Assembly: GCF_036588685.1 (NCBI RefSeq)
Contig: NC_086378.1
Coordinates: 26,908,001-26,972,000, forward strand
Reading direction: 5' to 3'
Source: Mytilus trossulus
Lineage: Eukaryota
DNA: 64,000 nucleotides
Position numbers and translations under genes: made by a program. Positions 13,478 through 58,524 of this stretch are shown piece after piece (the stretch's first letter is position 1; each line of letters begins with the position of its first letter). The notes under the pieces were generated by a model. It ran no database searches, was not told where the DNA came from, and saw nothing but the letters and a program-made list of their open reading frames with translations.

Positions 13478-16400
13478 TTACAAATAGAAACACATTTCTT
13501 TTGGAAAACAGTGTTCAAAGACAACTGGAACTTTTCTCTTTTCCATTCCTTTAGGATGCGTTGACTCGGAACTCTCGTCGACCTCAAAGTATTTTGAAAC
13601 ATAATAAGTCATATCATTTAAAACACGTAATATATCTATGCAGTTTATCTTGCTACTCTCTTGATCTATACGTTTTATTTGGGTCAATATTGCCTTGTGT
13701 AAAGAATATAACATCCATCCACCAACGCCTTCTCTTCCATAAGAATTTTTCTCTACAAAAAAAATTCATTAACTAGCTATAAGACACGTTCAATCCACCA
13801 TTCTCTACAAAAGAGACTGTCTGTACCAAGTTAGAAATATGACAGTTGTTATCCATTCGTCTGATGTGTAACCTGGCTTTCTTTTTTACTCAGTCGATAT
13901 ATGACTTTTGAACAGCGGTATACTACTGTTACCTTTATTTGAGCTTTTAATTTTGCCATTTGAGCAGGGACATTCATATTTTGAATTTTCCTCGGAGTTC
14001 AGTATTATTGTGATTTTACTTTTTGAAACACCTAGATATATATAAGATGAAATACATGCAACTGTTCCCCTCGATGTTTCTTAAAGTATTTATACCCTGT
14101 GTAAACATTTTGGTTGCATATTTGACGTTTGACGTTGAAGTTAGAGTTTTATCGTCTGCTTTGTCCAATCACAAACTGATATAAACCTAACAAAAGGCAA
14201 GGAGTGACTTGTTAAAAATATTACGATATACTTAAACACTATAATTATGACTTTCGAGTATTTTTTCTCTCTTGTGATATTTTGTGAACATTCGTGCTTA
14301 TTGAACAGCTTGAATAATTTGTGGTAGATTTAACACGTTTATCTTTAAGAAATATATTTACCAGTTCTATGATTGTAATACTCATTTGAGCACAAGAAAT
14401 GCATACAGTCTGATTACATAAATGTTGAGATTGGTCACAATAACTTAATAACAACATGTCTTATGTTGTATCAAACACATATTCCATATATATAATATAT
14501 CTTTTAGATGTCTTTTGGATGTTATGTTGGACAGATAGTGATTACGAAGGGTTAAAAGATCCACACTACCATTGCTTATCTCATGGTTTAAGGGATTCGC
14601 TACTCAATTTCAAAATAACAAGCTTTTCATAACACTAGTATATATTGATATGGGTTTAATACAGGAACAAAAATATGCAAAAAAAATATATAGGTCAATG
14701 TGCTTGTTTTCGATATATATTATATATATAAGCCATTGAAAGTTTGGCGGCAAAATGTTCTCTCTTGAGGTTTTAGAGCTTTATCAATGACAAGTTGAAG
14801 TTCTCAAATACTATTAAAAAAAGATTTTATAAGACTTTCACAGATGCTTTATAATAATGCATATAAAAAAATTATAAAATGAAAAATGGGGCATTGAGCA
14901 TTTTTTTTCAAATTGATAAAACCGAGTATTCCGAAAATCTGCCAACAATCCCTAACCATGCCAGCGAACATCCTTAATGGCTTTTATTTGAACTAAGTTG
15001 TCCTTAAATGAAATTTAATACCATGCATTCATCATGCTTTTCAATAACATATGATCAAATCGCTAAAAGGCCCCCTTCTAAATTATTGAAAACTATCGTT
15101 CTGCATTAATAATAATATCTTGGTGTAAATTAGATACACATATTCGGGCTAACGCATTCAACACACCAAAGCTTGCCCAATACTTATTAACATAAATGGC
15201 ACAATACTACCTGAAGCTGTTGAATAAACGACGAGACAGTCATCTGCACACGGTGGATCTACAACACGTATGATTTCTTTTGGCTTATTTATATTGTAAT
15301 CAAAGAACTTTTTCAGCGCTGCTTTGATACTGAACTCCGTTATGTCCTGGTCTTTAGACATGCTTCCAATCGGATCATTGTCGGTAGGTTTACTTGCACT
15401 TGGTGACACAGTATCTGACGATGTAGCTTCGTTTGTTTGATTTAAAGAATTTTTTACAATACTGCGAACTAAAACTTCATGCCCATGTTCATTGCAGAAC
15501 TCGTCCGGTTTCATCTTTGACCGACATGCCTACAAAGAAAAACTAGCTGTACACTCTTTTAAAGAAAATGTTTATTATCAGAATCATAAGCCAAATTATT
15601 ACAGAATCAATCATACTTCATGCTACTAGCATTGCACGGACTGAAATCAAACATATGTTAAACGATCCAGAACACATAAGCGAAACTGTGTATTTCTCTG
15701 TTCTGGGTGTTCTTACATTTATTTGTACTATATTCCTGTCATGTTATGTTGTCATTTTAGCAGTATATTTAACATTGGTATAAGGCGTGGGGTCGGTTAG
15801 TCACATAACCAGGTTCAACCCAGCATTTTTTCTTAAAACATGTTGTACCATGTCAGGAATGTCCAGTTGTTATCTACATGTTCTATGTATGTTATATTGT
15901 TGTTTGATTTTTGTTGCACTTTAGTGGGTTTTTTTTTCGTTAAACAACTTTGTTTTGTTGTTTGATATCCACTTAAAAAAAAAATAAGCATAGAAGACAA
16001 GACACAAATTAAGTTAGTAAATGGTACGAAGTATATAAACAGATATATGTGGTATGATTGTCAAAGGGAACTATATCCACCACAGTTCAACTGAAGTAAA
16101 TGTAAGCATTATAGCCAACCGTAAGACCTCACAATCAGACAAAGACATAACGTACTGCTATAAAAGGCCTGATATATAAAAAAAAAATGTGAAACAATTT
16201 AAACAAAAAGACGTTTTGGAATATCCGTTTCAAAGATGATAGCGGACATGTTTCTAATGTCGTAACTACAATCCCCTTTCCCGTATGCCATCTTCTGAAT
16301 AAGACTTGTTACTTGGTTAGAACTAACACGAAGGATGAAATAAGTGGAGAAAGATCTACCTTTCGTTCTGGAGCACATGTGATCATTCCAAGTTTTTGGT

Positions 16401-18904
16401 GGGGTTTGTGTTGCTGATTATTCAGTGTTCTATGTTGTGTTTTATGTACTATAGTTTGTCTGTTTTTTTTTTAGTTTTTTGAATTTTCCTTGCTTCGTTG
16501 TTTTCTTTTTAAAGTTTTAAATTGATATATGTATCCCTCGGCTTTAGTAAGAAAGTATAACCCGGATTTGTTTTCTTTCAATCGATTTATGTCTTTTGGA
16601 CACAAGGTATACTAATGTTGCCTTTATTTAGTGATGACGTTGTCAGTCAGTTTATTTTCAACTAATGATTATGAATGTCCACCTGGTATCTTTTGTCTCT
16701 CTATGAAACAATCTACGAAAAACACATTTTATGACTACCACTGAACTACAGAATCCTGACTTAAGACAGGCATATTCAGAACATTGCATGGTTAATCAAG
16801 GTTAGGAAAGTTAAACCCTAAACTTACATGAGACAGCGGTGTAACAGCAAAACATATGAACAAACTGTAAACATGTGTCTCATTCGTCTTAACTAAAACA
16901 ATCAGGGCAATGAAAACGTATATATGTATAGTAAAAATATTAAGGTAAATTCAAGGTGAATTATAAACAGGAGACATTTATAAAAAAAAAATGAAACGTA
17001 ATAAATGAATGGGAAAAGTGAATATATTCACATTGTTAAAGCGGCAGAGATGTTGATTCTAAAGGCAGACTTGTTTCTAACGTACCATATAATTCCCTCA
17101 ATTTCTAACCATTCAAAGATACGAACCTGAATAAAAAACATTTTAGGCTTATCTTGTAATCCCTTAACACCAGCGACTTTTTCAATTATACTTTTCGTTG
17201 TCACCGTATCATTATCAACTCCATAAATACAATGATCTCTGTAATATACTTCAGTAGGCAGGGAATCCACAGGTCTTGGTTTTTCGTTACCATGGCTTCC
17301 AATTATACACGCAAAACAATCTGAATTTTGATGGAATTGTGTCTGCTCGCAGGCTATGAAATGAGCATACATTTTGTTCCATTATTTTCTAGCAGGAATT
17401 TAGGGAATCATAGATTTAATTCAACGTCGTAGTACATAAAACAGTATTATTTTTTGCTGAGTTTTTAAACAAATAAAATATCTTAGAGCTTTGAACGGGT
17501 TATGATTTATCTTGGTTGTAACCGATGACCATTTGTATAAATTCTCTAGGTTTCTTTATATATTCCTCTAATGGTTGACCGATAGACTATAATTATTACG
17601 TCGTTTTGGTTTTGATTGAACATTAAATTGATACATTATTGACGTTCATCCTAGTTGTACCACCTTTTAGCCAGGAGTCATTCACTCACATATGATCTTT
17701 TTAAACTGGCTATCACTAATAAAAAGGCGTTCTAGGTTGCTATTGAAAACATATTTTCAATCTTCCACGTGGCATTTTTTAGACCTATTTCATTGCAATA
17801 CAGCAGTTTTTGAAACATTTTTCCTTTTGCATAATATATGCAGTATCTTTAGACGGTTTAATCGTATGCCTTTTTGTAGTTTCTCTGATATGTGATGTGG
17901 TTTGTTGAATTGAATCCATGTGATTATGGACTTTCCAAATTGATTTTCCTCTGAGTTCAGTATTTTTGTGATTTTACTTTGTACTTATACATTCCGCCAT
18001 TGTGTTATTGTGCTATGTTCAATTTTGGTATTATTGTCTTACACTTTTGCTAATGCGCTTTGTCTACACAGGTACTATTTCTGTATCAAAAATACTGGAA
18101 ATTTACTTTTAATAATCAGTACTATTTTGCTACTTTAAGATTATTGTAATATTTCGACCTGTATTTTACAGTACTTAATTTTAATACACCGTAATATTTT
18201 CAGCATTTTGAAGGTTTATCTATTTCAAATCTCTTACAATTATGATTGTCAATTGGTATTATTTCAGTACCAAAAATGTATAGTACAAATAAACAGCTGT
18301 AACAGACAGGCATCTTAATATTACAATATTTAAGGTACCCGGTAATAGTAATAAATATTATTTCCAGTACAACAGATTTTTAGTACATAAATCGTTCCTA
18401 TGCAGAAGTAGCAGTGTATATGCCTTTTTGTGCCTTTTGTGACCGTTGTTTTTAGTTTGTTTGATGTGTTTGAGCATTTGATTTTTGTCATTTGATTAGG
18501 GTCTTTTCATTTTGAATTTACCTCGGAGTTCAGTATTTTTATTCTACTTTTTTATCAGTACATGAACAATGTATTTTAATAAGTTAGTGATAAATGAGAT
18601 TTTTAATTTCTACCTTTTAGTTTCTGAATTTTCAATAATCAAAATCATCTTACCTATTTCTACAACCCAATTAATCTGTTGTGCAGTCAAATCCTTGAAG
18701 GTTACAACTGTAAAGTTAAGATGTTGTCCAAATGTTTCTTGCATATTTGTTAGTTCATCATCACAGTAATTCCGTTGTTTACAATTTTTGAAGTTTTCAT
18801 TGCTAATTATAATTGCTAAGCCTCTGTAAATGTTGTTACATTCATATTCGTTTTGGTTAGAAGATACACTACGTTTGGATTTCAAAGATCCTGATTTCAA
18901 AATG
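13478..18904 (-). CDS. Caspase paralog A (peptidase C14A, caspase-3/7-like), exons 18904-18654, 17353-17127, 15529-15211, 13752-13478; 5' exon(s) not identified
   Basis: Motifs RGLAIIISNENF, DCFACIIGSHG, KPKMFFIQ|ACRS, DCLVVYST, GGWML. GT-AG introns and phases (2,1,0,1) give an open reading frame. Confidence 0.88.
14588..14977. mobile_element. TTAA-flanked non-autonomous DNA element (Kolobok/piggyBac-like target)
   Basis: ttaagggattcgc ... gcgaacatccttaa are imperfect TIRs bounded by TTAA. Confidence 0.5.
18065..18402. mobile_element. Degenerate MITE in a caspase A intron
   Basis: tacacaggtactatttctgtatcaaaaat is an imperfect inverted match to atttttagtacataaatcgttcctatgca. Confidence 0.45.
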
Positions 18905-19504
18905 CTGAAACATATATACACACATTACATCAGACAGAGTTTGTAATTATACAAAACAAAGTATGCTACAAGTATGTTACATTGGCAACATTGTAAACTA
19001 CATTTGTTCGCAGTAACATAAATTAATAGTTGTTTCCCTCTAGTTGAGTATTTTTCAATTCACTTTGATTATTTTGCATGCTTCCTCTAATTTCTTAATT
19101 TCTGATATTAATCGTGGTTCTTCCAACATGTCCAAATTAATACATACTTTCACTGATTTATTTTACTGATCTTCTTCATAATTGTTCGAAAACTTGTTAC
19201 CATATTTGAAGTACGTATAATATCAAAATAGAAATAAACTATTCAGTAACAGTTACCTGTGATTTTATTGTATTTGGTACTTTATTGTTACTGAACATTT
19301 ACTGCAAAATTCCGATCGGTGGAAATCTTCGACAAGAATATCAGAAACAATTAGTGTAAAAATTTCTGGTATCTGAAAAACATGGTATAAATAACTTAAA
19401 ATACCTTTCAAAAATGTGTCTCATCTCTTCTTTGCTTTTAGTTCTTCCTTAAATGAAAAATATTTCTTTCTCAAAATTGCATAATTATCAAATTACTGAT
19501 CTGT

Positions 19505-19715
19505 ATAATGTTAATTCGGAAATTATTGCGAGGTTATTGTTATTGCGAATAATGCGACTGAGTTGTAAACGCAATAATTAAAACTCGCATTTTGTAATAT
19601 TTTAACTGAATTAAGCATGACTTTTCTCAAAATCGTAAAAATTAAAATCGCATTCAAGTGTAAAATGACAAAATCGCAATAATAAAATCTAGCAATAATT
19701 TCTGAATTTACAGTA
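19505..19715. mobile_element. ~210-bp MITE with TIRs
   Basis: aatgttaattcggaaattattgc ... gcaataatttctgaatttacagta form an inverted pair, with internal tcgca/tgcga motifs. Confidence 0.65.
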
Positions 19716-21129
19716 AAATAATTTAGACTTGATCCACAGAAGTGTAAAACTTATATCTAGTTTTGTTGATGTTGACGATTATATCTTCATTGACCTCCAG
19801 ATTTCATATTTTTCTTTTGTCGAATAGCTGTCTTATTGATATATACATGTATGTATTTATTCATATAATTAGGATTATAAACTTGTAAATCTTTTATATG
19901 TTGTTTTTTTTTTTTATTTATTAGGGTTTTCGGTGAATAATCTGTATTTTATATATTTTATCTAAGCTTCTCTCTTCCCACGTTTGATATTCAAGTATGA
20001 CACATTTTTTTTTTTACCAAAACTATTTTCGTTGCCAGAATTCGTTCTCTCTAATGATATTGTAAAACAGAAATTTATCTAGTGAATTTTATTACAAACA
20101 AGTGAATCTCCTTACACATAATCTCATCACATGCATTATCTCTACGTGTGTTTTATTTTTCTATCCTGGCGATTCATGAGATCCGAAAACATATTGTGTA
20201 TTATACCTTACAATAAAAAAGCAGCTATATAATTGTTTTGTTCATGCCTCATTAGTGCGAAACGTTATAGTTATTTTATTCCAAGTTCATCCTGATCCTT
20301 CATATGAGTATATCTGTCCAGTTATAGTCTTTGAAATTCACATTATCTTGAAGTATTTTGTAATATCCCTGTCTGTGTTTAACTAAAGATATACACATTT
20401 AGACAGACTGTTGTGGAATGATTTCTTAAACTAATCATCATAGTACAGGCCATAGACGACATATTCTATAATGAAACGGACATTCGGACTTTAACAGGAC
20501 AAATTCCAACTACTGGAATTTGTTAGTTCATTTTGGTGTTCTTTTACAAATGTTGGGGAATGATGAAACTATGTGAACGAGTGCTATTCTACGGAACCAA
20601 TAATTGATTCAGTTATTTCAACCAATATTAAGTGAATCCTCAGGTCATGCAGGTAAATATCTCGACTCGAAATTATGCTCATTGTTCCCGTACGACACTG
20701 TGATCCTTCTATACAAATGTGCGTAGTCTCAGGAATATAACACGAAGTTTTTTGTTGTTGTTCTTTTTTTTCTCTCTTTATAAATATATGTTCGCACAAT
20801 TCGCCATTTTAGATACAACCCTAATTCTCAACACCTTTTGTTTTAGCTGTTCATATGTGGGTAAAGTACATTTATTTGAAAGCTGTTTAACAGAATGAAC
20901 CCACCTCCTGTACTGCCTTCATCTCTAGGCGGGTTTTAGAAGGTTGTTCTCTGATAAATTTACTTTCACATCATTAATATGTAAAATTGCAATGCACATC
21001 AAAGTTCTTTATGTAATGTACAAATTCATTAAAAATTCAATTTAGTTCCTGACGATATAATACTTAGGGTTTGCCATACATTTATATGTCTTTTTTATAA
21101 ACGATTGTCATACAATGAAACTATCAGAC

Positions 21130-23733: not shown

Positions 23734-26479
23734 TTAACAACCATCACTCTCTGATTGAAACTGCACGTTCACAATCAGGAATTTCAATTTATTAGAAGGT
23801 TACTAGTATACTTAGTATTAAAAAGCTTTTTCAATTAGATGGGACCTTTAGAAGAAAACAAATTTTTATTTGTGATGTAATAATGGCCCTACCTTTAACC
23901 GTTCCTTCGTATGTGTTTGTCGCCATTACAAGGAAGAAATACTTGATATTATACTACTAATATACTCTTGTATACTTAATGGAAAATATCTAACGTAATT
24001 GTTTCCGTTCATAGATTATTTGTATTTATAGCTTAAAGACATTGTGATTTTTTTTCATTTATAAAACTTATAATCCTTCTACTTTTGATAACTTTTTTTT
24101 CATATATGAATAATCAGTCGAAAAAAAGAATGCATGATTGGCCCGTGCAAACGCAAATTTTAACATAAGGTGTATTGTTCCTTGTCATCGAACTATGAAT
24201 GCCCAGTAGACTTTCTAATATGTTTAAGTTTTAATTCTTTTTGCTGTATGAATATCTGAAGAGGAATAAGGGTAAACGCAAATGAGTAATTGGTACAACT
24301 ACCTTAAATGTAATTTGTATTAAAATTAAAAATCGAAAAAATGCATTTGTTTCTTTTATTGTCTGATATTGTCTCTTTTATTGTCTGAAATATTACTGAT
24401 TGGAAAAAATAAGCCGGTGACTCTATGATTATTTTACATCAGTATACAGACATTCGTGTACCAACAACATATAGTTTTTTAATTTGAGATTTTATAATAT
24501 GAAGACATATATATCTTTTATAAAAAAAGTCATATACGTTTTTCAATTACTTTATTTGCTTTCTTTACAAATATTCACCTATTTCAAAATAATTCAATAA
24601 TTTTTATTTTAAAGGTTCAAAAGATAAAAGCACTATTTTTTTCGATTTTAAGTTGAAGTTCAAAGAGTCAACGATGCATGTAAAATTCTACCAAAACCTG
24701 TAACATTAATTGTAACTTGGCCTTAACAGAGAAAAAATATACGAAATCGTTAGTCAAACCCCAGTAGTTGGTGAAAATATTTATATAAGGGAAACAATTA
24801 TACTCTAGAATTATACTTACTTGTCATGATACCATAGATTTCATGTCCGATGCTTCCTTGTTGATTCGAACTTATTTTAAGTCACTGTGCCTAAACCACA
24901 CCGGCAAAAATTGTTCGGACTCGATGGTGTCTAACATCCACCACAATGACGGAACATCAATAGACAGAAGAAAGATAGGTTTCTCCATATTTTTTTCATG
25001 CATATTTTGTAGTTGCTGTTAAGGTATAAGGTTTTGACATTTTCGATGCTATATTCTCCCTTTTAATTGTAATCATAAAATGATAGTATGGATCCAAAGC
25101 TATGTACTGATAATTTGGGATTTGTCAGTAAAAAATAGACATGGAAAGTTCTTGCCGGTTTGTTGTAAGTTAAGTTATTCTTACCTCACATTTTTTGTTG
25201 TAAACAAGATATAAGCCTGGCTATTCGATTGAATTAAAAATACGACCAATACGAGTAAAAAAAAAAAGCAAGCAATTTTTATCCAAATATTTGGTTGATA
25301 TGTATAAGGGGAAGTGAGGGGTTATGAATCAACAAGAGGCTAAGAATGAGTTTGAAATACCAACGATTTAATGAATGACGGTCAACAAATGGAGACATCA
25401 AGGCCACACCCAGCAGACAGGTTGCAGTCTGGTCTTGCATTTTTTTTTTACATATAATAGGTCGGTGAAACAGACGTTCTGGTTAGACTTAATAATTCTG
25501 TTGGAAATTTTCGTTTCCAATAGCAAAAAAGTGGACAAGATTTTTGTTTTCAATCCTGATACGAACAGAATTTGTGTTTAAGGCAAAAAATCAGAGTCTC
25601 TCAAATATCTAAGACTGTCTCCTCAAATCAGATGGTTCGTACTCACGACTTTACATATATCTAGAGCTTACACTGATTGGGGATCAATATTTAGCCATGT
25701 TATTTTAAAATAGGCTGGGGCGTTTGGGGTTTAACATGTTTTTGAAGTTAGATAATATTGATGTGGATCTTTTTTTCATGAGAGTGTAATAGTCTATAGA
25801 GTATTACTTTCTGTTTGATGGAATAGTGAACAAGAAGTCAATACGTTCTTGCTCAATCTTGTGTCGCTTTGAAGGTGTCGTGATTATCATCCTCAGCCTA
25901 TGCAATGTGTTACTGTAATTTGAATTTCAAAATGACTGAGCGACGCTTTTTTCGACGCGCTGGTGAACTCCAACCATAGCGTTCATATGACTTTGATAAT
26001 CAGTAAATTCCATCAAAATTTCTTTATAAGTAAAGAATTGTCACCTAAAAATTAAATACTAGAGTACACGGGAAACGGCAAAGTTCCGACTAAGTCTAGT
26101 CTGATCAATCATTTTACAACTAAAAATAAAAAAAAGTCCTAGCAAAGGGGGCGTACGCCCTCCGCGCCCCATCTGGATCCGCCACTGAACACGGAGATGG
26201 CAAAACTAGTCATTATGAGCATCGCAATACTTGTATTTCTGTGTATGGAACGAAAGAAATGGGTCATGTCAAATTAAAATAAACCAGTTTTGTCAATTTT
26301 GTTTACTACATAATCACCCGGTTTTGTCTATCACTGGTATTAAAGAGATAATCGTAACTGCAATTACGATTATCCCAATATGGCGACGGCATATATAGGT
26401 AAAATCTTTACAGTCAATTTACTTAAATGTAGCATGTTTTCGTCACTAGTTACTCAGCTGCAAGGTTTTTCTATACCAT

Positions 26480-26829
26480 TATAAGTTATATGGTTCGCTA
26501 CTGACCCCATATGGATCCAAAGAGGGTTAGTAAAATCCATAGGGGGTGAGGCCGGAGGCCGAGTCCCCTATGAATTTTATTCACCCTCTATGGATCCGTA
26601 GGGGGTCAGTAGTTAACCGTATAACGAATTTATCGGACGCTGGAGTTTTTTTGCGGCGTTCTGTTGAAAAATAAACAATGAAACACAACAACATTAATAG
26701 ATGACGTCGCCATTAACGCGTCATGAACCCCATATGAAACTTACTAACCCCATACGGTCTCATAGGGGGTCACCACGTGACGGCGTTTAACCAATCACAA
26801 CGTGCTTATTCATCTGTGGTCCGATAATA
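26480..26829. mobile_element. Non-autonomous element with a ~140-bp foldback hairpin plus IR ttatcggac/gtccgataa (possibly Crypton-like)
   Basis: 26485-26625 is an imperfect palindrome centred on gaggccggaggccgag; IR at 26630 and 26819. The family assignment is inference. Confidence 0.55.
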
Positions 26830-27299
26830 CATCATATTTGAATCGTAACAGTGCACTGGAATTGTCTAAGCGCTTTTAAAATTGGCGTTGAAAAATTCGG
26901 GATGATAATCGTAACTCTAAAGAATTTTTCTTGTTTGATAATCGTAATTCCTTTACCGGATAATAGTAACTGAAAAATTAAATGTGTCTTTCAGCATTTC
27001 AATGGTATTGTGTGTATTAAAATGCAAATGAACAGTTAATTGATGAAATTAACGGAAAATTAAAAAAAAATTAAGAAACTTACAGGTTAATATTTTAGAC
27101 AAATTTACTTATATGTCTCTCGATTTATTGGCGTTTTTTTTTTTACAAAACCGTGATTTCTTGTCCCGACCACTTTAAAAAAAATGTTTTTGATCTTTAC
27201 AAGTAATTTTTGTGCAGTCAGTACATTGAATTAGATTTAACATTTTTAAAGCAAAGAAACATAATATTTTGAGAGGGACTAATAAGCTATGGATTCCAG

Positions 27300-27987: not shown

Positions 27988-28110
27988 AAGCAACGTTAAC
28001 ACGGATCTGAACGTTGTCTTTCGAAAGAATTTAAATAAATGTTTATTGTAAAGTAAACTTGGCGTGTTTAAATTTATTTAAAACGAGCACTTTTGGACAT
28101 AAGTAATTAT

Positions 28111-29032: not shown

Positions 29033-29189
29033 ACTAATTATGGTAGTACAGATTTTCCTAATGAAAGGCGTATTCCTTATTTCGCATAAATTCAAACTAA
29101 TTTTAAATGGAATATAAATTATCAAAAGCAAACACTGATATCTAATTATTTCATAACATTATTAGTTTTTTCTATATAGGTTTTGAGAT

Positions 29190-31118: not shown

Positions 31119-31215
31119 CCATTGTCTTTAAATACCCTAAATGGAAACTTGACGCATGATACATCATTACATGGCGATACATGAATGCTATTGATTCTAA
31201 TAAATGTTTAAAAAA

Positions 31216-34200
31216 TCAATCTGTACTGTTATAAAGATATAGCTCTCTGTGTAAACAGTGTTCAAACACAATTGTAGCTTTACGTTTTGGGTTAACTGTT
31301 CCTTCAGGAAACCTTGTCTGAAAAGTCTCTGAATTTGAAACTTCTTTTGTCATAAAGGTTAAAACATCCATTACATCGATGCGATTTGTTTTCTTTTGAA
31401 TGCGAAGTTGTTCTTTCATCGCTTTATGTAGAGAAATGAGCATCCAACCACCTTTATCGTCTCTTCCGTACGATTGTTTTTCTGAAATAATTGAAGAGAA
31501 AATTAATGACCCATTAAAATACTAAAATAAGTATGTATCATTCAAAAGCAGAAGCATAATAATTGCTTTTTCCTGTTGTTCCTTTGTTTTCATCCGATAG
31601 TGATGTATTTCCTCGGTTTTAGTTTGTAACCCGCATTTGTTTTCTTTTAATCAATTTATGACTTTTGAACACGGTGTCGGACTACTGTTGTTTTAATTTT
31701 TCTGTTCAATAATAATGCTCAAGTTACAATACAGTGGAACACTATAATGCCATTTTACCCTATAAAGAGTACAAGGATTTACCTGCCCAAAGTTAGCAAC
31801 ATGGCTAACTTTTCTTAGTCAATCCATTAAACCGTCTTCTCAGGTTTTGTCAGTGACTATTGACTTCTAAATGTGTATTGTAAATCTTGTTAATTGCAAT
31901 TACATAACTTTAATTACCAATTTCGATCCTCTTTATTGAAGCAGAAAAGGCAAGATTTGGTATTTTAGTAACATGCATGTAATTGATAAATCATGTATAT
32001 ATTTTTTTTATTTGTTGAACTATTAATGACATTAATGTTACCTGAAGCTGATGAATACACCACTAACACATCATCACTACACGGTGGGTATATAACACGC
32101 ATCATATCCTTAGATTTATCTGTGCTCCAACCAATCATTTCACCCAGTTTATGGAGGATATTTGCTTCTACAATGTCCTCTTTTTGAGATAGGTTTCCAG
32201 GGGTAACACTGGCACAAGATTTGATTTTTGTTGGAAACAAAGAGTTTGAGAGTCTATTTACTTTGTCTGCATGATCTGAAATAATGCTTGGGTTATTTTC
32301 TTTTACAGCAATATTAACTGGTAAAACATGTCCTTTGTCTATACAAGATTCATTCGCGGTTTTATCCATCTTTGTCCGACACGCCTGCAAAATAACAACA
32401 TGTATTAACCTTTGACCATTCCTGATGCAGGTACATCAAGACGAACGCTTTGAACGCATGAAATTTATTTAACGTTTTTTAGTCAAGAACTGCGAATTCA
32501 ATTTTAAGACACTATTTAATATACACAATGGACTAGCCTATGAGATTAGGCTGATTATTAACGGAAGAGGTCTTTGTCTTTTTTGTTTATATTCAATGGG
32601 TTTTGTATCGAAGAAAACGATCAAAATACAAAATTTTCTTTTGATATTCAATTTGTTTTGTTGTCTACAATTGTTTCTAAATCTTTCTTGAAGTTAACCA
32701 TCATACTACAAACCTGGATGAAAAGCATCTTCGGTTTATCTTGCAAGGCTTCTGTTCCTGTGATTGTTTCTATAATACTTTTTGTTGTCACTGTATCTTC
32801 ATCCACTCCACATATACAATGATCTCTGTAATACAACCCAGGTGTCTTCATAGTTCTTGGTTTTTCGATACCATGGCTTGCAAGAACACACGCAAAGCAA
32901 TCTGATTGTTGATGAAATTCAGTTTGTTTGCAGGCTGATAACAATAAATAAAAAATGTGTTATCGAATGTCAAGATATTCAATTTTCCCTCTCTTTCTCG
33001 TACATAGTGCTAGTGGTTAGCTTGTAAGTTGTAGAAAGAACGAATTTAGGTAAGCTTTTATTTTGTCTATATTTTTACTATGACATCATTATATTTTTTT
33101 TCACTGCATTATTTATTAGTATATAAAGTTTTATATTCTTATTTCGCGATTGCCGCAAGTATGGATGTCTGGTCTGCAACAATCCATTTACCGAGATATT
33201 TTCTGAAATAAATTGTAACTACTGAGATTTTACTGGGAATAACTGGTTAATACCGCGACATAACCGAAAATGAGCGGTAATAATAAAACTTATTACTATC
33301 CTTATGTGAAGTGTTGTGAGTATAATTTGAAGATTCCTACTTAAATTATCAAATTTTGTACTTCATGGATTTTTAATATGAAGATGGAAACCCACCATAA
33401 AATAGTTAAAAAAACCAGAAACAAAACATCATTTATCGTCGAGTTATATCATTTTTATGAAAGTCTTAAAGTTGAATGATAATCAGATAGAGAATTTCAT
33501 TATGCCCTGCCTATCACTTCAAAGTTAAGATGTTCCAACTTACCTATTTCCATAACCAAATTTATTTGTTTTGCTGTCAAATCTTTGAAAGTTAAAACTG
33601 TGAACTTTAGATTCTTCCCAAATGTTTCTTGCATCAATCTTATTTCGTCATCACAGTATTTCCGACAGGTAAATGTTTTGAAATTTTCGTTGCTTATTAT
33701 TAAAGCTAGGCCCCTGAACCTTTTGCTACAATCATATTCGTTTTCATCAGATGGTATCGTAGGTTTTGATTTGGAAGATGCTGTTTTCAGGACACTAAAA
33801 TATAATTTTGTAAGTAAGATAAAGTTAGATAAGGTCATGTGACAATTCTTAATCCAAACGTTACATATTTCAAGATCAAATTTCATCAGGTGCGCCTGAT
33901 ACTAAAATTTGAAGTAGTAAAAATTTAAATCACAAAAATACTTAACTCCGAGGAAAGTTCAAAACGGGAAGTCCCTAATCAAATGGCAAAATCAAATGAT
34001 AAAACACATCAAACGAATAGACAGCAACTGCACATAACATTCTTTAAGCACACAAACCCGATGGCCTAAAAAAAAACCAGCTAAAATAACTTTTGCATAA
34101 CTCCATTAAAATTATTCGTGCACCGACATCTTACACTCAACGTAAACAAGAAACGATCACGTGACCATGAAGAATCTAGTAGGCTGACGTGCTTTCACAA

Positions 34201-35912
34201 TATATAAAAAAAAATATGTTTTACTGTAGAAGACGTTGAAAATAATGTAAAAAGCAGGATGATTATTTTCTTCCATGAAACCATTTTTATTTTTGCTCAA
34301 CATCTATAGACAAATTTAAAAAAATGGTCGTCAGATGTGAATTCTTTTTAATATCTTTAAAAAATGATTCACGTACTATTGTTGATTTTTTTTTTATACC
34401 ACCGCATGAACTGATTATACTATTTTATTGCATTTGTATGAATTTGGCTTAATATTGTAAATTATCGTATTAGCTTATAATCATATACATTGTATATACC
34501 TAGCAAAAATGTCTATCACATCTTGTTTACTTCCAACTGAAATATAAAAAAAAAATGTTAATTGTCATAATTATGAAAGTAAATATAATGTATCACCACT
34601 GACATTTGGAAGGGATTTCAACGTCATAAAAATCCGAAAATCTTGTTAATTTGAGTCGTTCGTGTCATGTATTTGAATCGAAATTTAAGTTTAACTTCTG
34701 TTATCACTAAATTAATAACTGCATATATGGGGTAAATATGAAAATAGAAGATGTGGTATGATTGTACAAGAGTCTGTTAGTCAGCATACGAAATGCAGTA
34801 AATAAAAACAAATGTCCACCAAGAGGTCATTATATGGTCTTTGTGGTATTGGCTTTAATTGCACAATCCGGTTTGCATTTGTCGGATATAAATAAAAAGG
34901 ATATACGTACATGTAACTTGTTTTCCTTAACTGCGAGTTGTTTCAAATTGGTAAAATTATTATTAATTTTTGTGTATGTTATCGTTAGTACCATTATCTT
35001 TTGAGTAATGTACTTTTTCAATACCGATTGTCACAGAATGTTCTTTGGTAATTCGAACGTTTCAAAGGTCCTATGAATTCAGAGGCGGATTTAGGGGGGG
35101 GGGGGGGTCAGTTATGAAAATATCTGGATCCGCCACTGATGATCGACCCAAAAAAAATAAAAAAAAAAATAAGGGGAGGGTTGAGATATAAAAATTATAG
35201 TATAGTAACTATAGTTGTGCCATTAAGTAGTTGTTGGATGTCATATCTATAAATACTAGTATTTTTTCTCTCAATTAGATTACTTCAAATTGATTACATA
35301 TCTAGCATTGTTTCTATTTGTTTTATTGACACTGAATTATTTAGAGCTTGACATTTGGTACAGTCACATAATTTTTGTTGAAGACTGTGTGTATTTTGTC
35401 ATGTGGTCGTCGTCACAATGACATTATCATATACACATTTCTTTTGTTTGGAAAATTTGTCAATATAGACGATTGATACAAGTTTATTATTTATTCATAA
35501 GTTGCCTTGGAAACCGGAAACGTGATTTCTATAAATACATACTGGTATAACTGTGTTGGTAAATAAAGCTATACATAAATTACATGAACACATACTAAAC
35601 AAGTACACATGTGTGAACAAAATACAATTTACTTATTCAGTTATCTTTTTTAAATCATTCTGTATAACATTAAGCTAGCTTTACATTTTAACCCTTGCAA
35701 GGTTATTGTAATGAAATGGAGCATTTTTTTTTATTTTCAGCCTAATGCAATTTAGCAGTACAATATTTTATTTTTAGATAGAACATCTGTTAACATTATC
35801 GATCGATATATATATATATATTCATCATCATTTATAATTGTATAAATTCAAGATACATATAGAATATTTTGTAATACATACCTTCCTTCCCTGTGTATAC
35901 GTTTAACGCCAT
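31216..35912 (-). CDS. Caspase paralog B (caspase-3/7-like, short prodomain), 6 exons: 35912-35882, 34536-34500, 33794-33544, 32934-32714, 32384-32042, 31481-31216; 382 aa
   Basis: The 1149-nt splice is fully in frame: MALNVYTGKEVGSKQDVIDIFASVLKT...RGLALIISNENF...DCFACVLASHG...KPKMLFIQACRT...GGWML. All introns are GT-AG. The two 5' micro-exons are less certain than the rest. Confidence 0.88.
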
Positions 35913-39112: not shown

Positions 39113-40419
39113 ATATACAAAATTCAGTCCTTGTATATATGATGAGTTTATTCAAATCGAACATAGTTAAGGATCACAGGGAACACATATTGAACAAAAC
39201 TATTAATGTACCAACAAATAATTCCTTAAAAAATTGATAAAAATGTTATTTCAATAAGAAGGAGTGATTGATGTTTGCATTACACTGCATTAGTTAAACA
39301 GGCAGTATCGCTGTGTGCCATAAGACAGTCAATAAGGAACGGAAAGGTCACAATAGGAGAAAAAACATTGTCCCGGTTATTAATGATATCGTTGTGAAGA
39401 TTATTGTTTAAACAACAGGATTTAGTTAAGTACGTCTGAGTCAGTGACAACCCTACAACAGATGTATCCATCGGATCGCCATCAATGATGGTGATACATG
39501 GCTGCGTACATGGAAGAACCAAAAATTTGCGAAAGCAAATTTACAGATCTAACATTGTTGGGTTGATGTTTAGACGAGTTGTATATATATATATATATTC
39601 ACTTTGCTAAATATAAAAAAGAAATGTGGTATGATTGCCAATGAGACAATGAAATTCAAAGATAATATTTAACCCTGAAATAAGAGGAACAAAATAAGTT
39701 CCACTTGATGGGATAATTAACTTAAAAATAAAATAAAATATTACTTTTAGTCCTGCGTATTCGTGGTTACACATTTTTTGTGGAATTTATGGGAAAAGGT
39801 GGACCAACACAATGCACTGTGCGCAAATAAATGTGTTGTTGCGTCTGAGGATACAATAAACGAACATGTTAGGTTTTATAAATATTTAATTCAAATTGTA
39901 TATCGTCATAATGTCACTGTAATGATTGAAGTTCACCACCCTTTTAAAGATTTCGTGTAATGGTTGATTTGTGTACAGCCCCAACATAAATTCATTACAA
40001 ATCTTTGAACCCTTTTAAATTAAAGTCCTCGCAGCTTTATCATGTTGCATCCTTTTGAACTCATGATATATTATAAAAGCAAAAAATAAACCACTGTACA
40101 TAGTATGGTAAGTAATTGAAATGATAATCACTGTTTCGTTATGTTTGCCGTATAAGATTAATAAAGATAATATTTCACTTATCATAAAATCAGGTGTAAA
40201 CAACATGTATACCTGACTTAATTTTCCTTCCGTAAAGGTAACATGGAAACTGTAACATTTACAGGCTCAGATGGTATGTGATTTGATTTTACTTCCTTTA
40301 CGGGCTTATGTTTAAGTTCGAAACGCGATGTTTTTGAAATATCCATTCAATTCAAGTCAAAGTCTTCTTTAAGCTATCCTTAAAACGATTCTTTTGTTCG
40401 AGATCCTTTACAATGCATA

Positions 40420-42870: not shown

Positions 42871-43859
42871 AGAAGAGAATAATTTTACACAGATACATGT
42901 TGTAACAAACAGGAAATGCAACAAATCATATCACATTTCCCGAATAAAATTTATCAAGAAACTTTATTCCACACGTGTCAGGATAACTATTTTACCTCTG
43001 AACACGTTCCTTTTTACAATATGATAATTTCAAACCGTTTGATTTCACGTGAAAAAATTGTTATATTTTGGGGGGTTGATAACAGAATGTAGGACTTGAT
43101 ACATACGCAAATTAGTTAAAGGTTTTGTTAATATCCAGTGGCAAATAGTTCATGTAAATTCGGGACGTCAGATACATTTATTACATTTAAAGTTCTAAAG
43201 ACATCTAGAGTTCAAGACACGGTCTTCGAGGCAGATATGAGTGTACTGACTGGCATATAACAGAGCCGTATCTTCATGTTCATGTTCGAGTGTTCCTATT
43301 CTAAAGCAGCTAAATTTACTGTTACAGATTAATCTTTTGCGTGGTTTATATTGTTTGTGCATTTGTGCTCTTTGGAACGTATCCTCCATAATTATATGTT
43401 GTCTATCGAGTTAATTATGTTTTAGTTTCCGCATTATTGAAAGAAGTTTAGCTGTCTAATTTAGAGTTTTAAATCAAAGAGTAAACATGGTGCATTTTTA
43501 TTCTTGAGATATACAAGCATCCGCACCTAGAATATTTTTGTTTGATTATTAAAACATTGAAGTTTTAAAAGTGACATTGGTAATTTTCTCTCATAAGCAT
43601 CACCATTAATTTCAGTTGAAACCAGAGAAGAATTACAGGCTGTTATAACAAGGTCAGATATATTACATGTATCTTATTAAATAAAGCACAAATTATCTGT
43701 AATTAATTTTATAATTGAACAGATCATTTATAAAAGAAACAGTCGTGAAATTTCTATCAATAAAAGAGATATTGAAAAAATCTGAGTGCTTTTATATATA
43801 CTAAATACAAATTACATTTTTATTTCAATGGACCATTACAAAATAATATACATTTAAGA

Positions 43860-52200: not shown

Positions 52201-53195
52201 TTGAACGAAGTCAACAAGTTAAGGTCAATAACGTCATGTCTAATACTAAATGCATAAAAACTGGTGTACCACAAGGTTCTATCCTGGGCCCTCTGTTATT
52301 TATTTTATATATCAATGATTTACCACTTAATATAGAACATTCATTAATAGATTTATATGCAGATGATTCTACATTACATTGTAGAGGTAATGATGTAATT
52401 CAGATAGCTTCTAACCTTCAAAATGATATTCATGTTATTGAAAACTGGTGTTTGCAAAATTGTATGAAATTAAATGCCAAAAAGTGTAAATCAATGATTA
52501 TTGGTTCAAAACAAAGGCTTTGTTTAACTGGAAACAGTTTAGATATAAATATTTCAAATGAACAAATAGAAAATGTAGATTGTGAAAAACTACTTGGTTT
52601 ATATATTGACAAAAACTTAAATTGGAATCAGCAAATAGATAAAATGTCAATTACTATATCAAATAGAATCAACTTATTACAAAAGATAAGAAAATATTTA
52701 CCTATGCATATACGTATTATCTATTTTAATGCTTATATTCTGCCATTATTTGATTATTGTTGCAATATATGGGGAAGTTGTTGTGAAAGTGGAATAAATA
52801 AACTTAATAAATTATTAAAGAAATCTGCTAGGGTTATAGTAGAAGCTGACATAATGACATCATCCAGTTTATTGTTTTAAAGTTTACACTGGTTAAATGT
52901 GGAAAAACGAATTCAATACCAAAAGGCAATACTTGTATTTAAATCAGTTAATGGCATGGTTCCTAACTATTTAGAAGAAAATTTTCATTTTACTAATAAT
53001 CAAAACTATAACTTACGTTCAGCTGATGAAAAACTATTAAATCTTCCAAAACCAAAAACAAATTTTTTAAAGAAAACATTTACATATTCAGGTTCTCAAA
53101 TATGGAACAGTTTACCAAATGAAATCAAAATGAGTGATACACTTGTATCTTTTAAAACAAAATGTTACAAATTTTTCATCAATTGTGCAAATTAA
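46239..53195 (+). pseudogene. LINE ORF2 (APE endonuclease + reverse transcriptase), disrupted
   Basis: GGGV, YRPP, LGDFN, TTIDHI, SDHYPV; NYRPIAVLP, DLKKAFD, GVPQGSILGP, YADD. Disrupted by stops at 46784 and 52880, a frameshift near 51955 and the insertion at 47569-51439. Confidence 0.9.
47569..51439 (-). mobile_element. 3.87-kb TIR DNA transposon with 3-bp TSD (ATA) and a decayed transposase C-terminus (~48760-49300)
   Basis: TIR gacgttacgctagatgttggtg / caccaacatcgagcgtaacgtc. Removing the element plus one ATA restores the LINE ORF2 frame (KKIHNNITHLEYK...). Remnant peptide FKPIKGIRTIHRV...SCYCDGC on the minus strand. Confidence 0.88.
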
Positions 53196-54014
53196 TATGC
53201 ATTTTCATTATTATTTCAATACAATTGTATATTGTGTATAATATAACTTTATTATACTGTTTGTACTTATAACTATGTTATTATTATTTTGAGGACTCTC
53301 AGGAAGATTAGTTTTAACTAATGGGATCATCCTCTTGAAATAAAGATTATTTATTTATTTATTTACAAGTTTGATCGTTTATATCAATATACAATGTTAT
53401 TTCCATTGTTTTATGCAATGAAGGTCTACATATAATAGTAATGCTGCAGCTGATTTAATAAGTTTATGTAAATAAATTGAAAAAAAAACTTCGGTTTCTT
53501 TATAGTACAATCTGAATAAAATTTGGATCTATTATAATTTTCATTCGTATAGTTCTGGACATAATATTCAATTTCATGATGCTTGATGTATAGGGAAAAC
53601 GGAAGTATTACATTTTCCCAGCATTAGGTTGGCCTTTTGTGTACCCAAGACAGGGCGAAGGAAGTCAACTTAAGAACGCTGTGATTGGATGTATTAAAGG
53701 GTACAAGTTATTTTTTTATTTATCTATTAATAACTGCAGTGTGTATATTTACAATATAAATTTTAGAATCTATTGAAATATTTTCTAGTGAATTATTCGA
53801 AAATGTTGCATAATTAGTAAAGATTGTTCTTAAATACTTGGATACATCGGGATTTTTCAATCTCTAAATTCTGAAAATCAAGTGAAGGCTGCTTGGAGTT
53901 TGCATGCAGCAAAAAAAGTGAAACCTTTGGGGGAACAACGTAAAAGTAGCATGTTCTGACAGAATATTAGACTTAAGTGAAATGTTTTTGACATCTCTTT
54001 TGAAAAAGGTCAAA

Positions 54015-57000
54015 ATGGCTGCCGTTGATATGGACACAGCAAAATTTGAAAAGTGAACCATTTACGGCCTTCAACAATGAGAAAATCAAATGCATTATAT
54101 TTAGTTAGAATTTGTTGAAAAAATATGAAAAGTGAAGCATTTACGGGCTTCAACAATGAGCGAAACCAAAAAAATGCATTATATTTAGAAGTTGCTTTAA
54201 AAAATATGTAAAATGAAGCATTTTCGACCTTCACCAATGAGCTAATAGCAGCTGTTGCCTAAAGAGTGTTTCAATGGAAGTCGCGAATTTCTGTATTCTT
54301 CCCATTATGATGTCATTGGTCTATATTCTTTATTTTTGTTTAATTATTTTGTTAAAATTTCTTTATACTTTACCACCCTATTAGCCTTTATTTTTTATAT
54401 TGGGCTATAAAAGCGTATAGTATGCAGTTACAGTTTAAGATGCCATAAATAAATTAATATAATTTCTGACACTATAAATTCTGTTAATAAGATATTTATT
54501 TAGGCGCTCCATATAAATAACATGATAAGAATCAATCAAGTTCATATGGACAGGTTACTCGGACATTTTTCTATAAATAGAGAATCAGGTGAAAGCTGCA
54601 TGGGTTCTTATTATAGGACATTAATCACGACCAGGTCAAAAATGTTGCATAATTAGTAAAGGTTGAATCAAGTGCATTTGGTTACTATGCAATTATTCTA
54701 TAAATAGTAAAATCACGTGAAGGCCGCGTGGAGTCTGCATGCACAAAGCGAGATAGATATTGTTCGGAACCAAATTGCGTTCTGAAATTCTCTTGACTTT
54801 TTATTACTTTAACATATTCCCAATCATTTATTTATTTAGTATATTGATATATAATTTATTTAGAGTCAGGTGTTTGACGTCAGAATGTAAACGTCACACA
54901 GGCATAAGAGATATAAAATAATTATGAAGTTCTAAGTTATTTCAAAATTATAATAGAACAACGTTGATCGATTTGTTTGCAGAGCCATAAAATCGGCATC
55001 TCCAAAAGGTAAATGCATGGACTCAGCAGGCGAAGGTGAATATACGTGTAACAACATATTCAGAGGTTTGGCTATTATAATCTGCAATGAAAATTTCAAA
55101 GAACCTAATAAACCCCGCCGCTGTTGTGATGATGATTTACAGCTAACGAAGGAGACATTTTCGAAATTACAATTTTTAGTGATGGCTTTCAAAGATTTGA
55201 CAGGAAGACAGATAGGCTTGGTTTTCGATATTGGTAAGACAAAAATGCTAATATACAGCTCCCTCTTTCTCTTTGTTTCTCTAAGACACATACATTTCTC
55301 TCTTAGACTAGCTCTTTCTTTCTGATACGTGCGCCTCTGTCTATTTCATAGAATCTTTATTCTTAGAATCAATTAAACTAATTTTCTGTCAGAGTTGAAA
55401 TGATCTCAACAGCCGTTCTCTCGCTTTTATAGTAAGTAACATCAACATGTAGCCTTCAGCACTACGTTTTCCCCCCTCTAATTTTAACGTTGATAAGAAT
55501 AAAATTTCAGCACCAATTACATGAAATTGAGAATAGAAACGGGGAATATACCAAAGAGATAACAACTAGACCAAAGTGCAAAAAAAATGTATTTCTGTCT
55601 GGTTTTGTTTACTTTTTCCTTATTAACAGAAAAAAATGTAAAATTGTTTCCTATAAAAAACAGCCTAGCCAGTCGACACTACATCTTTTATATAGCTTTG
55701 AATTTCAAATATTTTGGCCACGAGCATCACTGAAGAAACATATATTGTCGAAATGCGCATCTGGTGCAGCAAAACTGGTACCGTTAATGTTATTCGATAT
55801 TATGATAAAATTTTACATGCTTAAAAGTTAGTTAAAACAGCAAATATTGGCTGAATGCTATCCGTACAAATTGAAAACAAAATGTATCTGAAAATGTTTA
55901 AAATAATAAAAATTCCTACTTTCAACCTGTCCTTGTAAATAAGGTCTGTATAATACGGTAAAAAGATTGCATGATGACTTCCTAAAAGTAAAAAGATGAG
56001 GTATGATTGCCAATGAGACAACTCTCTACAAGTGACCAAATGGCACAACTATAGGTCACAGTACGGACTTCGATTATAAGCAAATCCCATACACTTTATT
56101 TATAACAGGAGAAACAATATAGATAGGTTTTACCAAGAATTACAGTACAACGCTTTTAGCGCAACTACATTATCAATTAATCATATTTGTGATGCATGAA
56201 ACAGTAATACTGACGTATTGTATAATATTAGCCGCAGGACAAGAGGAGTTCCATATGAAATCAGACTGCTTTGCCTGTGTTGTTGCAAGTCATGGAAACG
56301 AGCGATATAGACCTGTTGATGACAAAAAGCCACCTGGGTTGTATTTCAGAGACCACTGTGTCTATGGAATAGACAATGAACCAGTCGCAACAAAACAGAT
56401 TGTTAAAAAGTTCTCTGAAGTTACATCCCTTGAAAATAAACCTAAGCTTTTCTTTATACAGGTAAGTTTTCAAGAAGATTGTATTGATAAGTTAAAATAA
56501 GTATGGGAAAAATGTTTTTCTAATTGAAATTGTTTAATGTGCCAACTATTTTTGTAAAATTATGGTATTTTTTCATACTGTGTTTTTCTTTTGATTTTTT
56601 TTTTTATATATTCATAGAAAAGTCTTTAGAGTATTGATGGAGACTACCAAAGATCTTGCAACATCTATCGTTTAATATATAACATACAACATGTAATATG
56701 AAAAATAACAAAAAAGAAAAGGTTTCATTTCTTTGATCATGTAGCAGAATGGGACATCTAGTTGCAGGCATTCGATCTTTCCCTTTTAAATTGGTAGTTT
56801 AATTAACAAAAGGTAATATTATTTTTGATTTATTGAAATCGGTCCAGAAAAAGCAACAAACTCAATGATAGCGGTATCACACTTACACTACCCAGATGGT
56901 TTTTTTAAGAGTGTGGAATAGATCCTCCTTTTGATGTTATTTTGTTTATTTAATAATTTAGATATTTATTTCATTCAGGCTTGTCGTATTGTCCCGAACG

Positions 57001-58524
57001 GGATATGTTCTATAGACGAAGGACATACTGTAAGTGTAGACCCCTCAAATTTCCAAGACGAAGTGATATTAAAAAATGCAGATGATATTCCGGAACCAAG
57101 CTTTTTCGATAGATTATTAGGAAGAAAAACCAATACAATGGACACCCCAAAGATAATCCGTGTTCTTGATCCACCATGCGAAGATGATTGTCTCATTGTT
57201 TATTCATCTAACTCAGGTATTATGTTATAAATGTACAAAAACCATACACTTATGAATGTTAAGTGTACACATATTCGCAGACATGGAAAATGGCCTATGG
57301 AAACTCGTGGGTTGCTGCACGTAGAATCACGTGAACAGTTTATTAGGAAACTGTATCAAATAAAAGCAACAGTAGTATACCGATGTTCGAAATTCATAGA
57401 TCTATTGAGAAAAAAACAAATTCGGGTAAAAAACTAAAACTGAGGGTAAATTAACACATCAAATATAAGAGGAGAACTACGATTCAATTCTTAACAGAAA
57501 AACAACATTAAAATGTAACACACACAGTAACGAACTATAATATAACAATGGCCATTTTCCTGACTTGGTACAGGACATTTTTTTAGAAAAAAATTGGTGG
57601 GTTGAACCTGGTTTTGTGGCATGCCAAACCTCCCGCTTTTATGGCAATGTTGAATATAACATTAAAATAACAACATTACATGACAGGACTACAATCCACT
57701 TAATTGGAGAACATATAGGACAGAGAAACACACGAATAATAGCTAACAAAAGGTACCAGGCGCGTGTTTCGTCCACACAAGACCAACCAGTGACGCTCTG
57801 ATGAAAAAAGGTCGAAACACAGACAGACTTAAATGGTATTTGAATATAAGATATATACCTTAACTATCTAAAGGGCTAATCAATTGTTTAATCATCCCGC
57901 ACGATATTTATTTTTCTTTTTAAACGCGGTTATGCTGTGTGTGTATGCGAGTGCGGACGAACGATCAAGATACTGTGTATATACGTTGTCTTTAAGTGAA
58001 TTAAATCAATGTTAGATGTTGTACACATTATATGAAACACAAAGTACTAATTAAATAATTAACCAAATAATATTTGTTTAAGAACAACCGATATATAAAG
58101 GAAACTTAGTCCATTTGGTATGAAGAACAACCACAACACTGTCGTGTGTGTATTATATTGATTGTGAACTTCTATTAATTTCACATGTTTGTCGCATCAT
58201 GTAAATCCACCATCATGTCTGATGTTTAATTCTATGTACCCCCCTTTTTTTTTTTTTTTTACAGAAAAGGAGTCTTACGGGAGGCATGCTAGTTATATAA
58301 ATGGTGGTTGGATGTTAATATCTTTATATAATGCAGTGGACAAATATTTGCAGGCTCTACACATTAACATGATAAACCGTATCGATATAATAGATGTTTT
58401 ATATGAGATGACAAGTTACGTTGCCAAGAGAATGGAAGTATATTCAAAAGAAACTGCTTATCAAAAGCGTAAGGCAGCTATAGTTTTCGAACACTGTTTT
58501 CACAGAGAGTTATTTTTCAAATAG
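54015..58524 (+). CDS. Caspase paralog C (caspase-3/7-like), exons 54015-54052 (putative), 54983-55233, 56232-56461, 56979-57216, 58265-58524; ~338 aa
   Basis: RGLAIIICNENF, DCFACVVASHG, KPKLFFIQ|ACRI, DCLIVYSS, GGWML; same intron phases as A and B. The first exon MAAVDMDTAKFEK is phase-compatible but has a weak donor (gtgaac). Met 55017 is an alternative start. Confidence 0.87.
55724..55767 (+). ncRNA. Minimal type I hammerhead ribozyme of a second sequence family, in a caspase C intron
   Basis: gcatca-CTGAAGA-aaca tatat tgtc-GAAA-tgcgca-TC-tggtgc; the first stem II pair is an A-C mismatch. Confidence 0.7.

Follow-up and report, generated by a model that had tools for sequence, protein, structure and literature searches.

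Three linked caspase genes of Mytilus trossulus within a bivalve caspase-3/7 subfamily, with Gly341-Arg342 in the p10 loop

Does the loss of the glycine from the caspase active-site motif QACxG mark a new kind of enzyme, or one that is already known? The question is raised by a 64,000-nucleotide (nt) stretch of the Mytilus trossulus genome (contig NC_086378.1, positions 26,908,001 to 26,972,000 of the forward strand; this whole stretch is called the window below), in which three caspase genes, here named A, B and C, have a core span of 13478-58524. An earlier note, made from the letters alone, read their spliced motifs as QACRS, QACRT and QACRI and proposed a lineage-specific, diversifying subfamily of probably active proteases. 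Our analysis indicates that A, B and C are mussel members of a bivalve caspase-3/7 subfamily that has been described before, and that the flagged motif change was already known. We consider it quite probable that they are dimeric zymogens of the executioner type, held in check by the linker between their subunits, and that they would cleave after Asp with Arg342 in place of Arg341. They are likely to be working cell-death proteases, because loss of the Gly is known in the subfamily and an oyster member reportedly cuts ordinary caspase substrates. Partial texts are the source for PMC11543851, PMC10967218, PMC12550167, PMC3037946, PMC4357240, PMC9389742 and PMC8748541, and statements citing them refer to those parts.

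Gene structure and catalytic core

Exon coordinates were obtained from a scan of the window and from the joined translation. All three genes are built of six coding exons, with GT-AG at every intron, and share intron phases 1, 2, 1, 0, 1 and a third exon of 251 nt. Coordinates are those of the window, and CDS stands for coding sequence.

A coding exon 1: 23893..23926, minus strand; 34 nt with the start codon; joined CDS translates to P0001
A coding exon 2: 19405..19447, minus strand; 43 nt; joined CDS equals P0001
A exon 3: 18654..18904, minus strand; 251 nt, N-terminal half of p20, R70 equivalent to Arg179; joint to exon 4 in 4/4 runs
A exon 4: 17127..17353, minus strand; SHG (His130), clade-typical insert, last codon the Gln of Q/ACR; seen in contigs
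A exon 5: 15211..15529, minus strand; ACRS (Cys187; Ser codon 15520-15518), long linker with D-I-T-E, start of p10
A exon 6: 13478..13752, minus strand; p10, SYGR loop (Gly codon 13738-13736, Arg codon 13735-13733), stop
B coding exon 1: 35882..35912, minus strand; 31 nt with the start codon; joined CDS identical to P0203
B coding exon 2: 34500..34536, minus strand; 37 nt; from the joined CDS
B exon 3: 33544..33794, minus strand; 251 nt, N-terminal half of p20 (R67)
B exon 4: 32714..32934, minus strand; SHG (His127), last codon the Gln of Q/ACR; contig piece 32713-32934 in run X7
B exon 5: 32042..32384, minus strand; ACRT (Cys182; Thr codon 32375-32373), long linker with D-I-V-E
B exon 6: 31216..31481, minus strand; p10, SYGR loop (Gly codon 31467-31465), stop
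C coding exon 1: 40243..40273, plus strand; 31 nt with the start codon; tblastn, GT donor and open frame (predicted splice)
C coding exon 2: 43616..43652, plus strand; 37 nt; tblastn with orthologues
C exon 3: 54983..55233, plus strand; 251 nt, N-terminal half of p20 (R68)
C exon 4: 56232..56461, plus strand; SHG (His127), last codon the Gln of Q/ACR
C exon 5: 56979..57216, plus strand; ACRI (Cys185; Ile codon 56988-56990), shorter linker with D-I-P-E
C exon 6: 58265..58524, plus strand; p10, SYGR loop (Gly codon 58279-58281) followed by a three-residue insert, stop

A and B lie in tandem on the minus strand and C lies on the plus strand, head-to-head with B; with the two small 5' coding exons added to each gene, the start codons of B and C are 4.3 kb apart. 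A six-frame scan of the window placed SHG at 17297(-), 32878(-) and 56288(+) and ACR at 15529(-), 32384(-) and 56979(+). A splice acceptor followed by Ala-Cys-Arg codons occurs three times in the window, precisely at A, B and C, compared with a mean of 0.105 and a maximum of 2 in 200 mononucleotide shuffles. After splicing across the phase-0 intron at Q/ACR the motifs are QACRS (A), QACRT (B) and QACRI (C), SHG and the catalytic Cys are kept, the Gly is replaced by a different residue in each gene, and each frame is open up to one terminal stop. The layout, the split motif, the shared phases and the 251-nt exon are all as the earlier note had described them. A pseudogene or an artefact was ruled out by the open frames, the shared phases and orthologues in four other Mytilus species.

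The spliced products of A and B equal the M. trossulus RefSeq proteins P0001 (XP_063439728.1) and P0203 (XP_063439729.1), respectively, and C agrees with P0204 (XP_063442976.1) at every one of its last 314 residues. Complete C has 348 amino acids (aa), so that the RefSeq model (314 aa) is without 34 N-terminal residues. The exons at 40243-40273 and 43616-43652, absent from that model and present in 348-aa orthologue models, were located by tblastn with the orthologues P0208, P0212 and P0205, and exon 1 is backed by a GT donor and an open frame. Across the trio the RefSeq names are 'cell death protein 3-like', 'uncharacterized' and 'caspase-3-like'.

Contigs of four sequencing runs (24 candidates, three studies, RNA status guessed) were compared over 13400-33399. 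In 4/4 runs 1458, 1597 and 1300 bases were skipped at CT..AC ends. These are precisely the three core introns of A, including the one at Q/ACR, which shows splicing at least for A. Pieces of B contigs end at exon borders (32713-32934, 32078-32383 and 30690-31481). The window and the contigs differ at six or more sites in the exons of A; of the six that were translated, five change an amino acid, four of these in the linker, and they were not used as a selection test. Very high-depth repeats were seen in all four runs at about 21400-23400, in intron 1 of A, and at 26070-27400, between A and B.

Pfam Peptidase_C14 was the only family match of P0001, P0203 and P0204 (E 3e-33, 2e-35 and 5e-28; 115.8, 123.2 and 98.7 bits; curated cut-off 21.4). 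About 45 residues precede the caspase domain, a short prodomain without CARD or DED by Pfam, and the layout is p20 plus p10. An AlphaFold model of C, from a 104-row alignment led by C, had a predicted local distance difference test score (pLDDT) of 88.6 and a predicted template modelling score (pTM) of 0.88, and it matched caspase-7 (4jr2_B) with VIA Z 30.4, a root-mean-square deviation (rmsd) of 1.4 A over 226 residues and Foldseek E 4.5e-20. A run of A on nine close sequences gave pLDDT 40 and was left unused. The His-Cys dyad and oxyanion Gly are H130/G131/C187 in A, H127/G128/C182 in B and H127/G128/C185 in C, and Arg179, His237, Gly238, Gln283 and Cys285 are each present in 24/24 rows of the clade described below (alignment A3). 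A, B and C have a caspase fold with intact His, Gly, Gln and Cys and with Arg179. They share with canonical caspase-3/-7 this fold (Z about 30, rmsd 1.3-1.4 A), the dyad, Arg179, Gln283, Ser339 and Trp348, and neither has CARD or DED. They differ in the replaced QACRG, in Gly for Arg341, in an insert of about 16 residues after SHG and in a long linker, and the identity in the structural alignment is 29-31%. A, B and C are not classed here as canonical executioner caspases of the caspase-3/-7 type, since QACxG is absent, the pocket Arg341 is replaced and they do not group with QACRG/SWRN-type rows in the tree.

Phylogeny and the residue after QACR

From 174 candidates, 32 were dropped because they had no recognisable p10 anchor; the remaining 142 rows gave a quick tree, and 63 of them, chosen by hand, a careful one. 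The 63-row tree contains a 28-row clade (support 100/99) of mussel-type, oyster Cg3/7E-type (P0170a, P0165, P0183a), pearl-oyster and other rows, and its support by the Shimodaira-Hasegawa-like approximate likelihood ratio test was 98 after removal of the motif and loop columns. Within it, 14 rows of mussel-type proteins make up a clade of their own (100/100), in agreement with the 142-row tree. A, B and C group with an unlinked fourth paralogue, XP_063411180.1 on a different contig, in 13 rows at 96/97. Rows of the QACRG/SWRN type fall on the outgroup side (100/99) in this tree, which has no named vertebrate sequence.

Orthologues of A, B and C were found in M. edulis, M. galloprovincialis, M. 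californianus and M. coruscus. Because their accessions are consecutive on shared contigs, the data suggest that the trio is a conserved cluster across Mytilus species; copy number beyond the window rests on database proteins. The M. coruscus orthologues are CAC5390960 (C-type) and CAC5390961, a fused model of B and A. In the favoured explanation the trio goes back to tandem duplication and one inversion that preceded the split of the Mytilus species. In M. coruscus 47 caspases with two three-gene caspase-3/6/7 arrays have been reported, many with changes at the Asp-binding Arg or Gln (PMC10967218); the available part of that survey contains no enzymology. We found no literature mention of six locus and protein identifiers that were searched. 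Among the database proteins P0170, P0183, P0234 and P0013, tandem paralogues of C. gigas, C. angulata and M. coruscus are merged into records with two domains. In the Pinctada 'caspase 3' (QPP12405.1), which may be a real fusion or a merged model, there are likewise two, and the catalytic Cys is missing from the first.

The residue after QACR, position 287, is S in 11, I in six, T in three, M in two and K in two of the 24 clade rows in alignment A3, and never Gly. MALT1 and metacaspases likewise have a residue other than Gly two places past the catalytic Cys. Among the best 150 matches from 50%-cluster representatives, Gly follows QxCx in 62 and another residue in 59, and the pattern was unmatched in 29. 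Vogeler 2021 (PMC7836458) described the bivalve caspase-3/7 group as QACRX, and the alignment there has QACRS, QACRT and QACRI, with S in Cg3/7 and Cg3/7A, B, C and E, T in Mg3/7-3 and I in Cg3/7F-J. In M. coruscus 40/51 CASc domains are without the canonical pentapeptide (PMC10967218), and PMC9389742 tabulates QACRS for a squid caspase. Judged from these alignments, the Gly was lost before the mussel/oyster split and its loss is ancestral to the described group. The idea of a lineage-specific subfamily thus survives for the mussel expansion, the 13-row group, and fails for the loss of the Gly.

Paralogue dN/dS by the NG86 method was 0.40 for A-B, 0.18 for A-C and 0.30 for B-C, and 0.11-0.24 in p20; dS is near saturation for the pairs with C (1.3-2.7), which makes their values rough. 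A, B and C are under purifying selection. Neither the diversification proposed earlier nor the neutral dN/dS named as grounds for rejecting it was seen. At position 287 A orthologues have S (4/4) and C orthologues I (4/4), and the five B orthologues have M (three), T (one) or I (one). Because the residue varies among B orthologues and paralogue dN/dS is low, position 287 looks relaxed rather than specificity-setting, and with S, T, I, M and K all found there it therefore probably has no role in setting specificity. In the available part of a caspase-3/7 deep mutational scan (PMC8748541) no information on Gly165 or Arg207 was found.

The p10 loop, the linker and the explanations weighed

With the Vogeler alignment as reference, the loop at 339-342 reads S-W-R-N in human caspase-3, A-Y-G-R in Cg3/7E and S-Y-G-R in A, B and C. 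The register of A and B against human caspase-3 is gap-free between the Y-S/A and G-G/S-W anchors. Gly341 and Arg342 each occur in 23/24 clade rows of alignment A3, the remaining row being a gap in a model without this segment. Arg341 is kept in 61/80 other rows, and three further clade rows within these 80 carry Gly341-Arg342. In a review (PMC12550167) R179, R341 and Q283 make up the Asp pocket and R341 tethers P3; in the S1 pocket of A, B and C Arg179 and Gln283 are present, Gly is at 341 and Arg at 342. The invariant Arg342 probably takes over the substrate charge contact of Arg341. The Gly341-Arg342 shift, which the earlier note did not contain, appears a better candidate for altered specificity than the residue after QACR. 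Romero et al. 2011 (PMC3037946) noted substitutions of Arg341 in two mussel caspases other than these. For the shift in this clade no discussion was found in the part of the literature that was examined, although supplements or figures may mark it; 'Arg' occurs nowhere in the main text of Wang 2024 (PMC11543851), and the accessible part of PMC4357240 yielded nothing on Arg341.

The linker has about 81 aa in A, 89 in B and 54 in C, with boundaries set near those of Wang 2024. By the long-linker threshold for caspase-3/6/7 (63 aa or more) A and B pass, and C falls below although the tree places it in the clade. The linkers are divergent except for one element, D-I-T-E in A, D-I-V-E in B and D-I-P-E in C. 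The pattern D[ILV]xEx(1-2)[SN][IFV] occurs in 17/28 linkers, with a mean of 0.2 in shuffled ones; excision was tried on 34 rows, six of which could not be cut, and the motif was set post hoc on related rows. No discussion of this D-x-x-E element was found in the literature examined. An RxRxxS/T motif, the AKT site like oyster Thr260, was not found in A, B or C.

The clade has one assayed member. Purified oyster CgCASP3, or 'CASP3/6/7 like6', is reported to cleave Ac-DEVD-pNA and to be blocked by Z-VAD-FMK and Ac-DEVD-CHO (Wang 2024, PMC11543851). Its QACRS is termed a mutated motif in that paper. It is said there to prefer DEVD among seven Asp substrates, a set with no non-Asp P1. Deletion of the linker K220-F339 reportedly raises its activity and the deleted form still self-cleaves (PMC11543851), and by our comparison the deletion ends directly after the D-x-x-E element. 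We identified CgCASP3 as Cg3/7E by six anchors (S201, N202, K220, T260, F339, M366) at a constant offset of 48, counted by hand; against record P0170, a model without part of the linker, 5/7 anchors fit at offset 0. The table of PMC11543851 has the 464-aa protein (53/148/165/44/54) in row like5, whereas the text says like6. CgCASP3 carries QACRS and the same YGR loop as the clade. Cg3/7E shares with the trio the clade (100/99), a QACRS-type motif, the insert after SHG ending in His, the YGR loop (Gly341-Arg342), GGW, a long linker with D-x-x-E, a short prodomain and tandem copies. It differs in its linker of 165 aa, in the AKT site Thr260 and in an identity of about 28%, and the duplications in mussels took place independently of the one behind the oyster pair. 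The wider bivalve caspase-3/7 group (Cg3/7, Cg3/7A-L, Ch3/7, Tg3/7, Mg3/7-3) is like the trio in QACRX and in the insert after SHG. In its other branches, unlike in the trio, position 341 is still Arg (Mg3/7-3, Cg3/7F-J) or is occupied by Ser or Asn, and the Mg3/7-3-like P0060 is not part of the clade that holds A, B and C.

On this basis A, B and C, with their short prodomains, would be held as homodimer zymogens by the linker and activated when it is cut or displaced. The His-Cys dyad would then cleave substrates after Asp, with the shifted Arg342 making the charge contact in place of Arg341. Both the inhibition of activation by the linker and cleavage after Asp are likely in A, B and C by comparison with the oyster enzyme. 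The constrained genes and the intact dyad are consistent with the earlier view of probably active proteases. The reported activity of an oyster clade member on DEVD lowers the novelty, as the earlier note had foreseen for such a case.

Several points weigh against this explanation. Arg341, which the review assigns to the Asp pocket and to the tethering of P3 (PMC12550167), is out of register in all three proteins, and A and B have no Asp where the usual executioner maturation site lies. The activity is transferred by homology, and B and the oyster protein are just 28% identical in their best local alignment. The oyster assay used 50 uM PAC-1 and HEK293T cells with caspases of their own, and no catalytic-mutant control was seen in the available part of the report (PMC11543851). 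No assay of any Mytilus member was found in the literature. Splice joints of B are not among the 15 joints listed, and the interval compared ends before C.

It is also conceivable, though rather unlikely, that the enzymes are active on other substrates: the Gly341-Arg342 shift would reshape S1 and S3, substrates would differ from DxxD (for example with Glu at P1), and the D-x-x-E element would serve in self-cleavage or as a pseudo-substrate. The gap-free register, the near-fixed Gly341 and Arg342 in the clade and the frequent D-x-x-E element, just past which the activity-raising oyster deletion ends, all fit such a change. However, CgCASP3 with the same loop is reported to prefer DEVD among the Asp substrates, its linker-deleted form still self-cleaves, so that the element is dispensable for maturation (PMC11543851), and the motif was defined on related rows after the sequences had been seen. 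A bivalve-wide orthogroup with a rebuilt pocket and a new specificity such as P1 Glu, autoinhibited by the D-x-x-E pseudo-substrate, is likewise rather unlikely.

We judge it quite unlikely that the three proteins have little or no protease activity and act as regulators or scaffolds, either as cFLIP-like partners or as decoys for inhibitors of apoptosis proteins (IAPs) or pathogen inhibitors; the loss of Arg341 would then cripple substrate binding. The absence of Arg341, the many M. coruscus caspases that have lost Asp-binding residues (PMC10967218) and the caveats of the oyster assay would agree with this. Yet the His, Cys, oxyanion Gly, Gln283 and Arg179 are retained in 24/24 rows from mussels, oysters and other sources, which pseudo-enzymes do not usually show, and the DEVD-ase activity reported for the oyster enzyme is blocked by Z-VAD-FMK and Ac-DEVD-CHO (PMC11543851). 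The earlier proposal that diversifying selection fixed S, T or I after QACR in each paralogue for its own specificity or regulation is very unlikely, since the constancy of S in A and I in C, and an orthologue identity of only 83-94% in p20 within Mytilus, are outweighed by the mixed B orthologues, the recurrence of the same residues on unrelated branches of the wider bivalve group and a gene-wide dN/dS well below 1.

Surroundings of the genes and implications

Intron 2 of C contains a LINE-like element (44874-53200, plus strand) with an SGNH-hydrolase-like ORF1 and pieces of endonuclease and reverse transcriptase, broken by stops. A 3.87-kb insertion (47569-51439) splits this element. The insertion, which carries terminal inverted repeats of 29 nt (86%) and is flanked by ATA at either end, is likely a non-autonomous DNA transposon. 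Intron 1 of C holds a tandem array of a 46-bp unit (40842-42598, 38 copies, 92% matches). At 59273-61038 a 341-bp unit is repeated 5.2 times at 100% identity, which means either an array of very recent origin or an artefact of the assembly. A galactosyltransferase (PF01762, E 5e-46) lies at 62321-63460 on the minus strand, in an unbroken 379-aa frame with an N-terminal hydrophobic segment. A PAN-domain exon (54-704, plus strand, E 3e-06) and a weak C-type-lectin-like exon (about 7997-8284, plus strand, E 0.0097) possibly belong to one or two secreted-protein genes, and a weak HTH_38 frame is at 27463-27987.

Our study corrects the model of gene C and links three poorly named RefSeq genes to the sole assayed member of their clade. 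Loss of the QACxG Gly as such matters little, being known in bivalves and present in an oyster QACRS relative reported to be active. If enzymes without Arg341 truly cut DEVD, they would be a natural work-around for a residue treated as universal in Asp recognition. If the trio cuts something else, caspase assays based on DEVD would miss part of the family in mussels, and if its pocket has been rebuilt, the three mussel genes would offer a natural set in which to test how caspase Asp specificity can be re-engineered.

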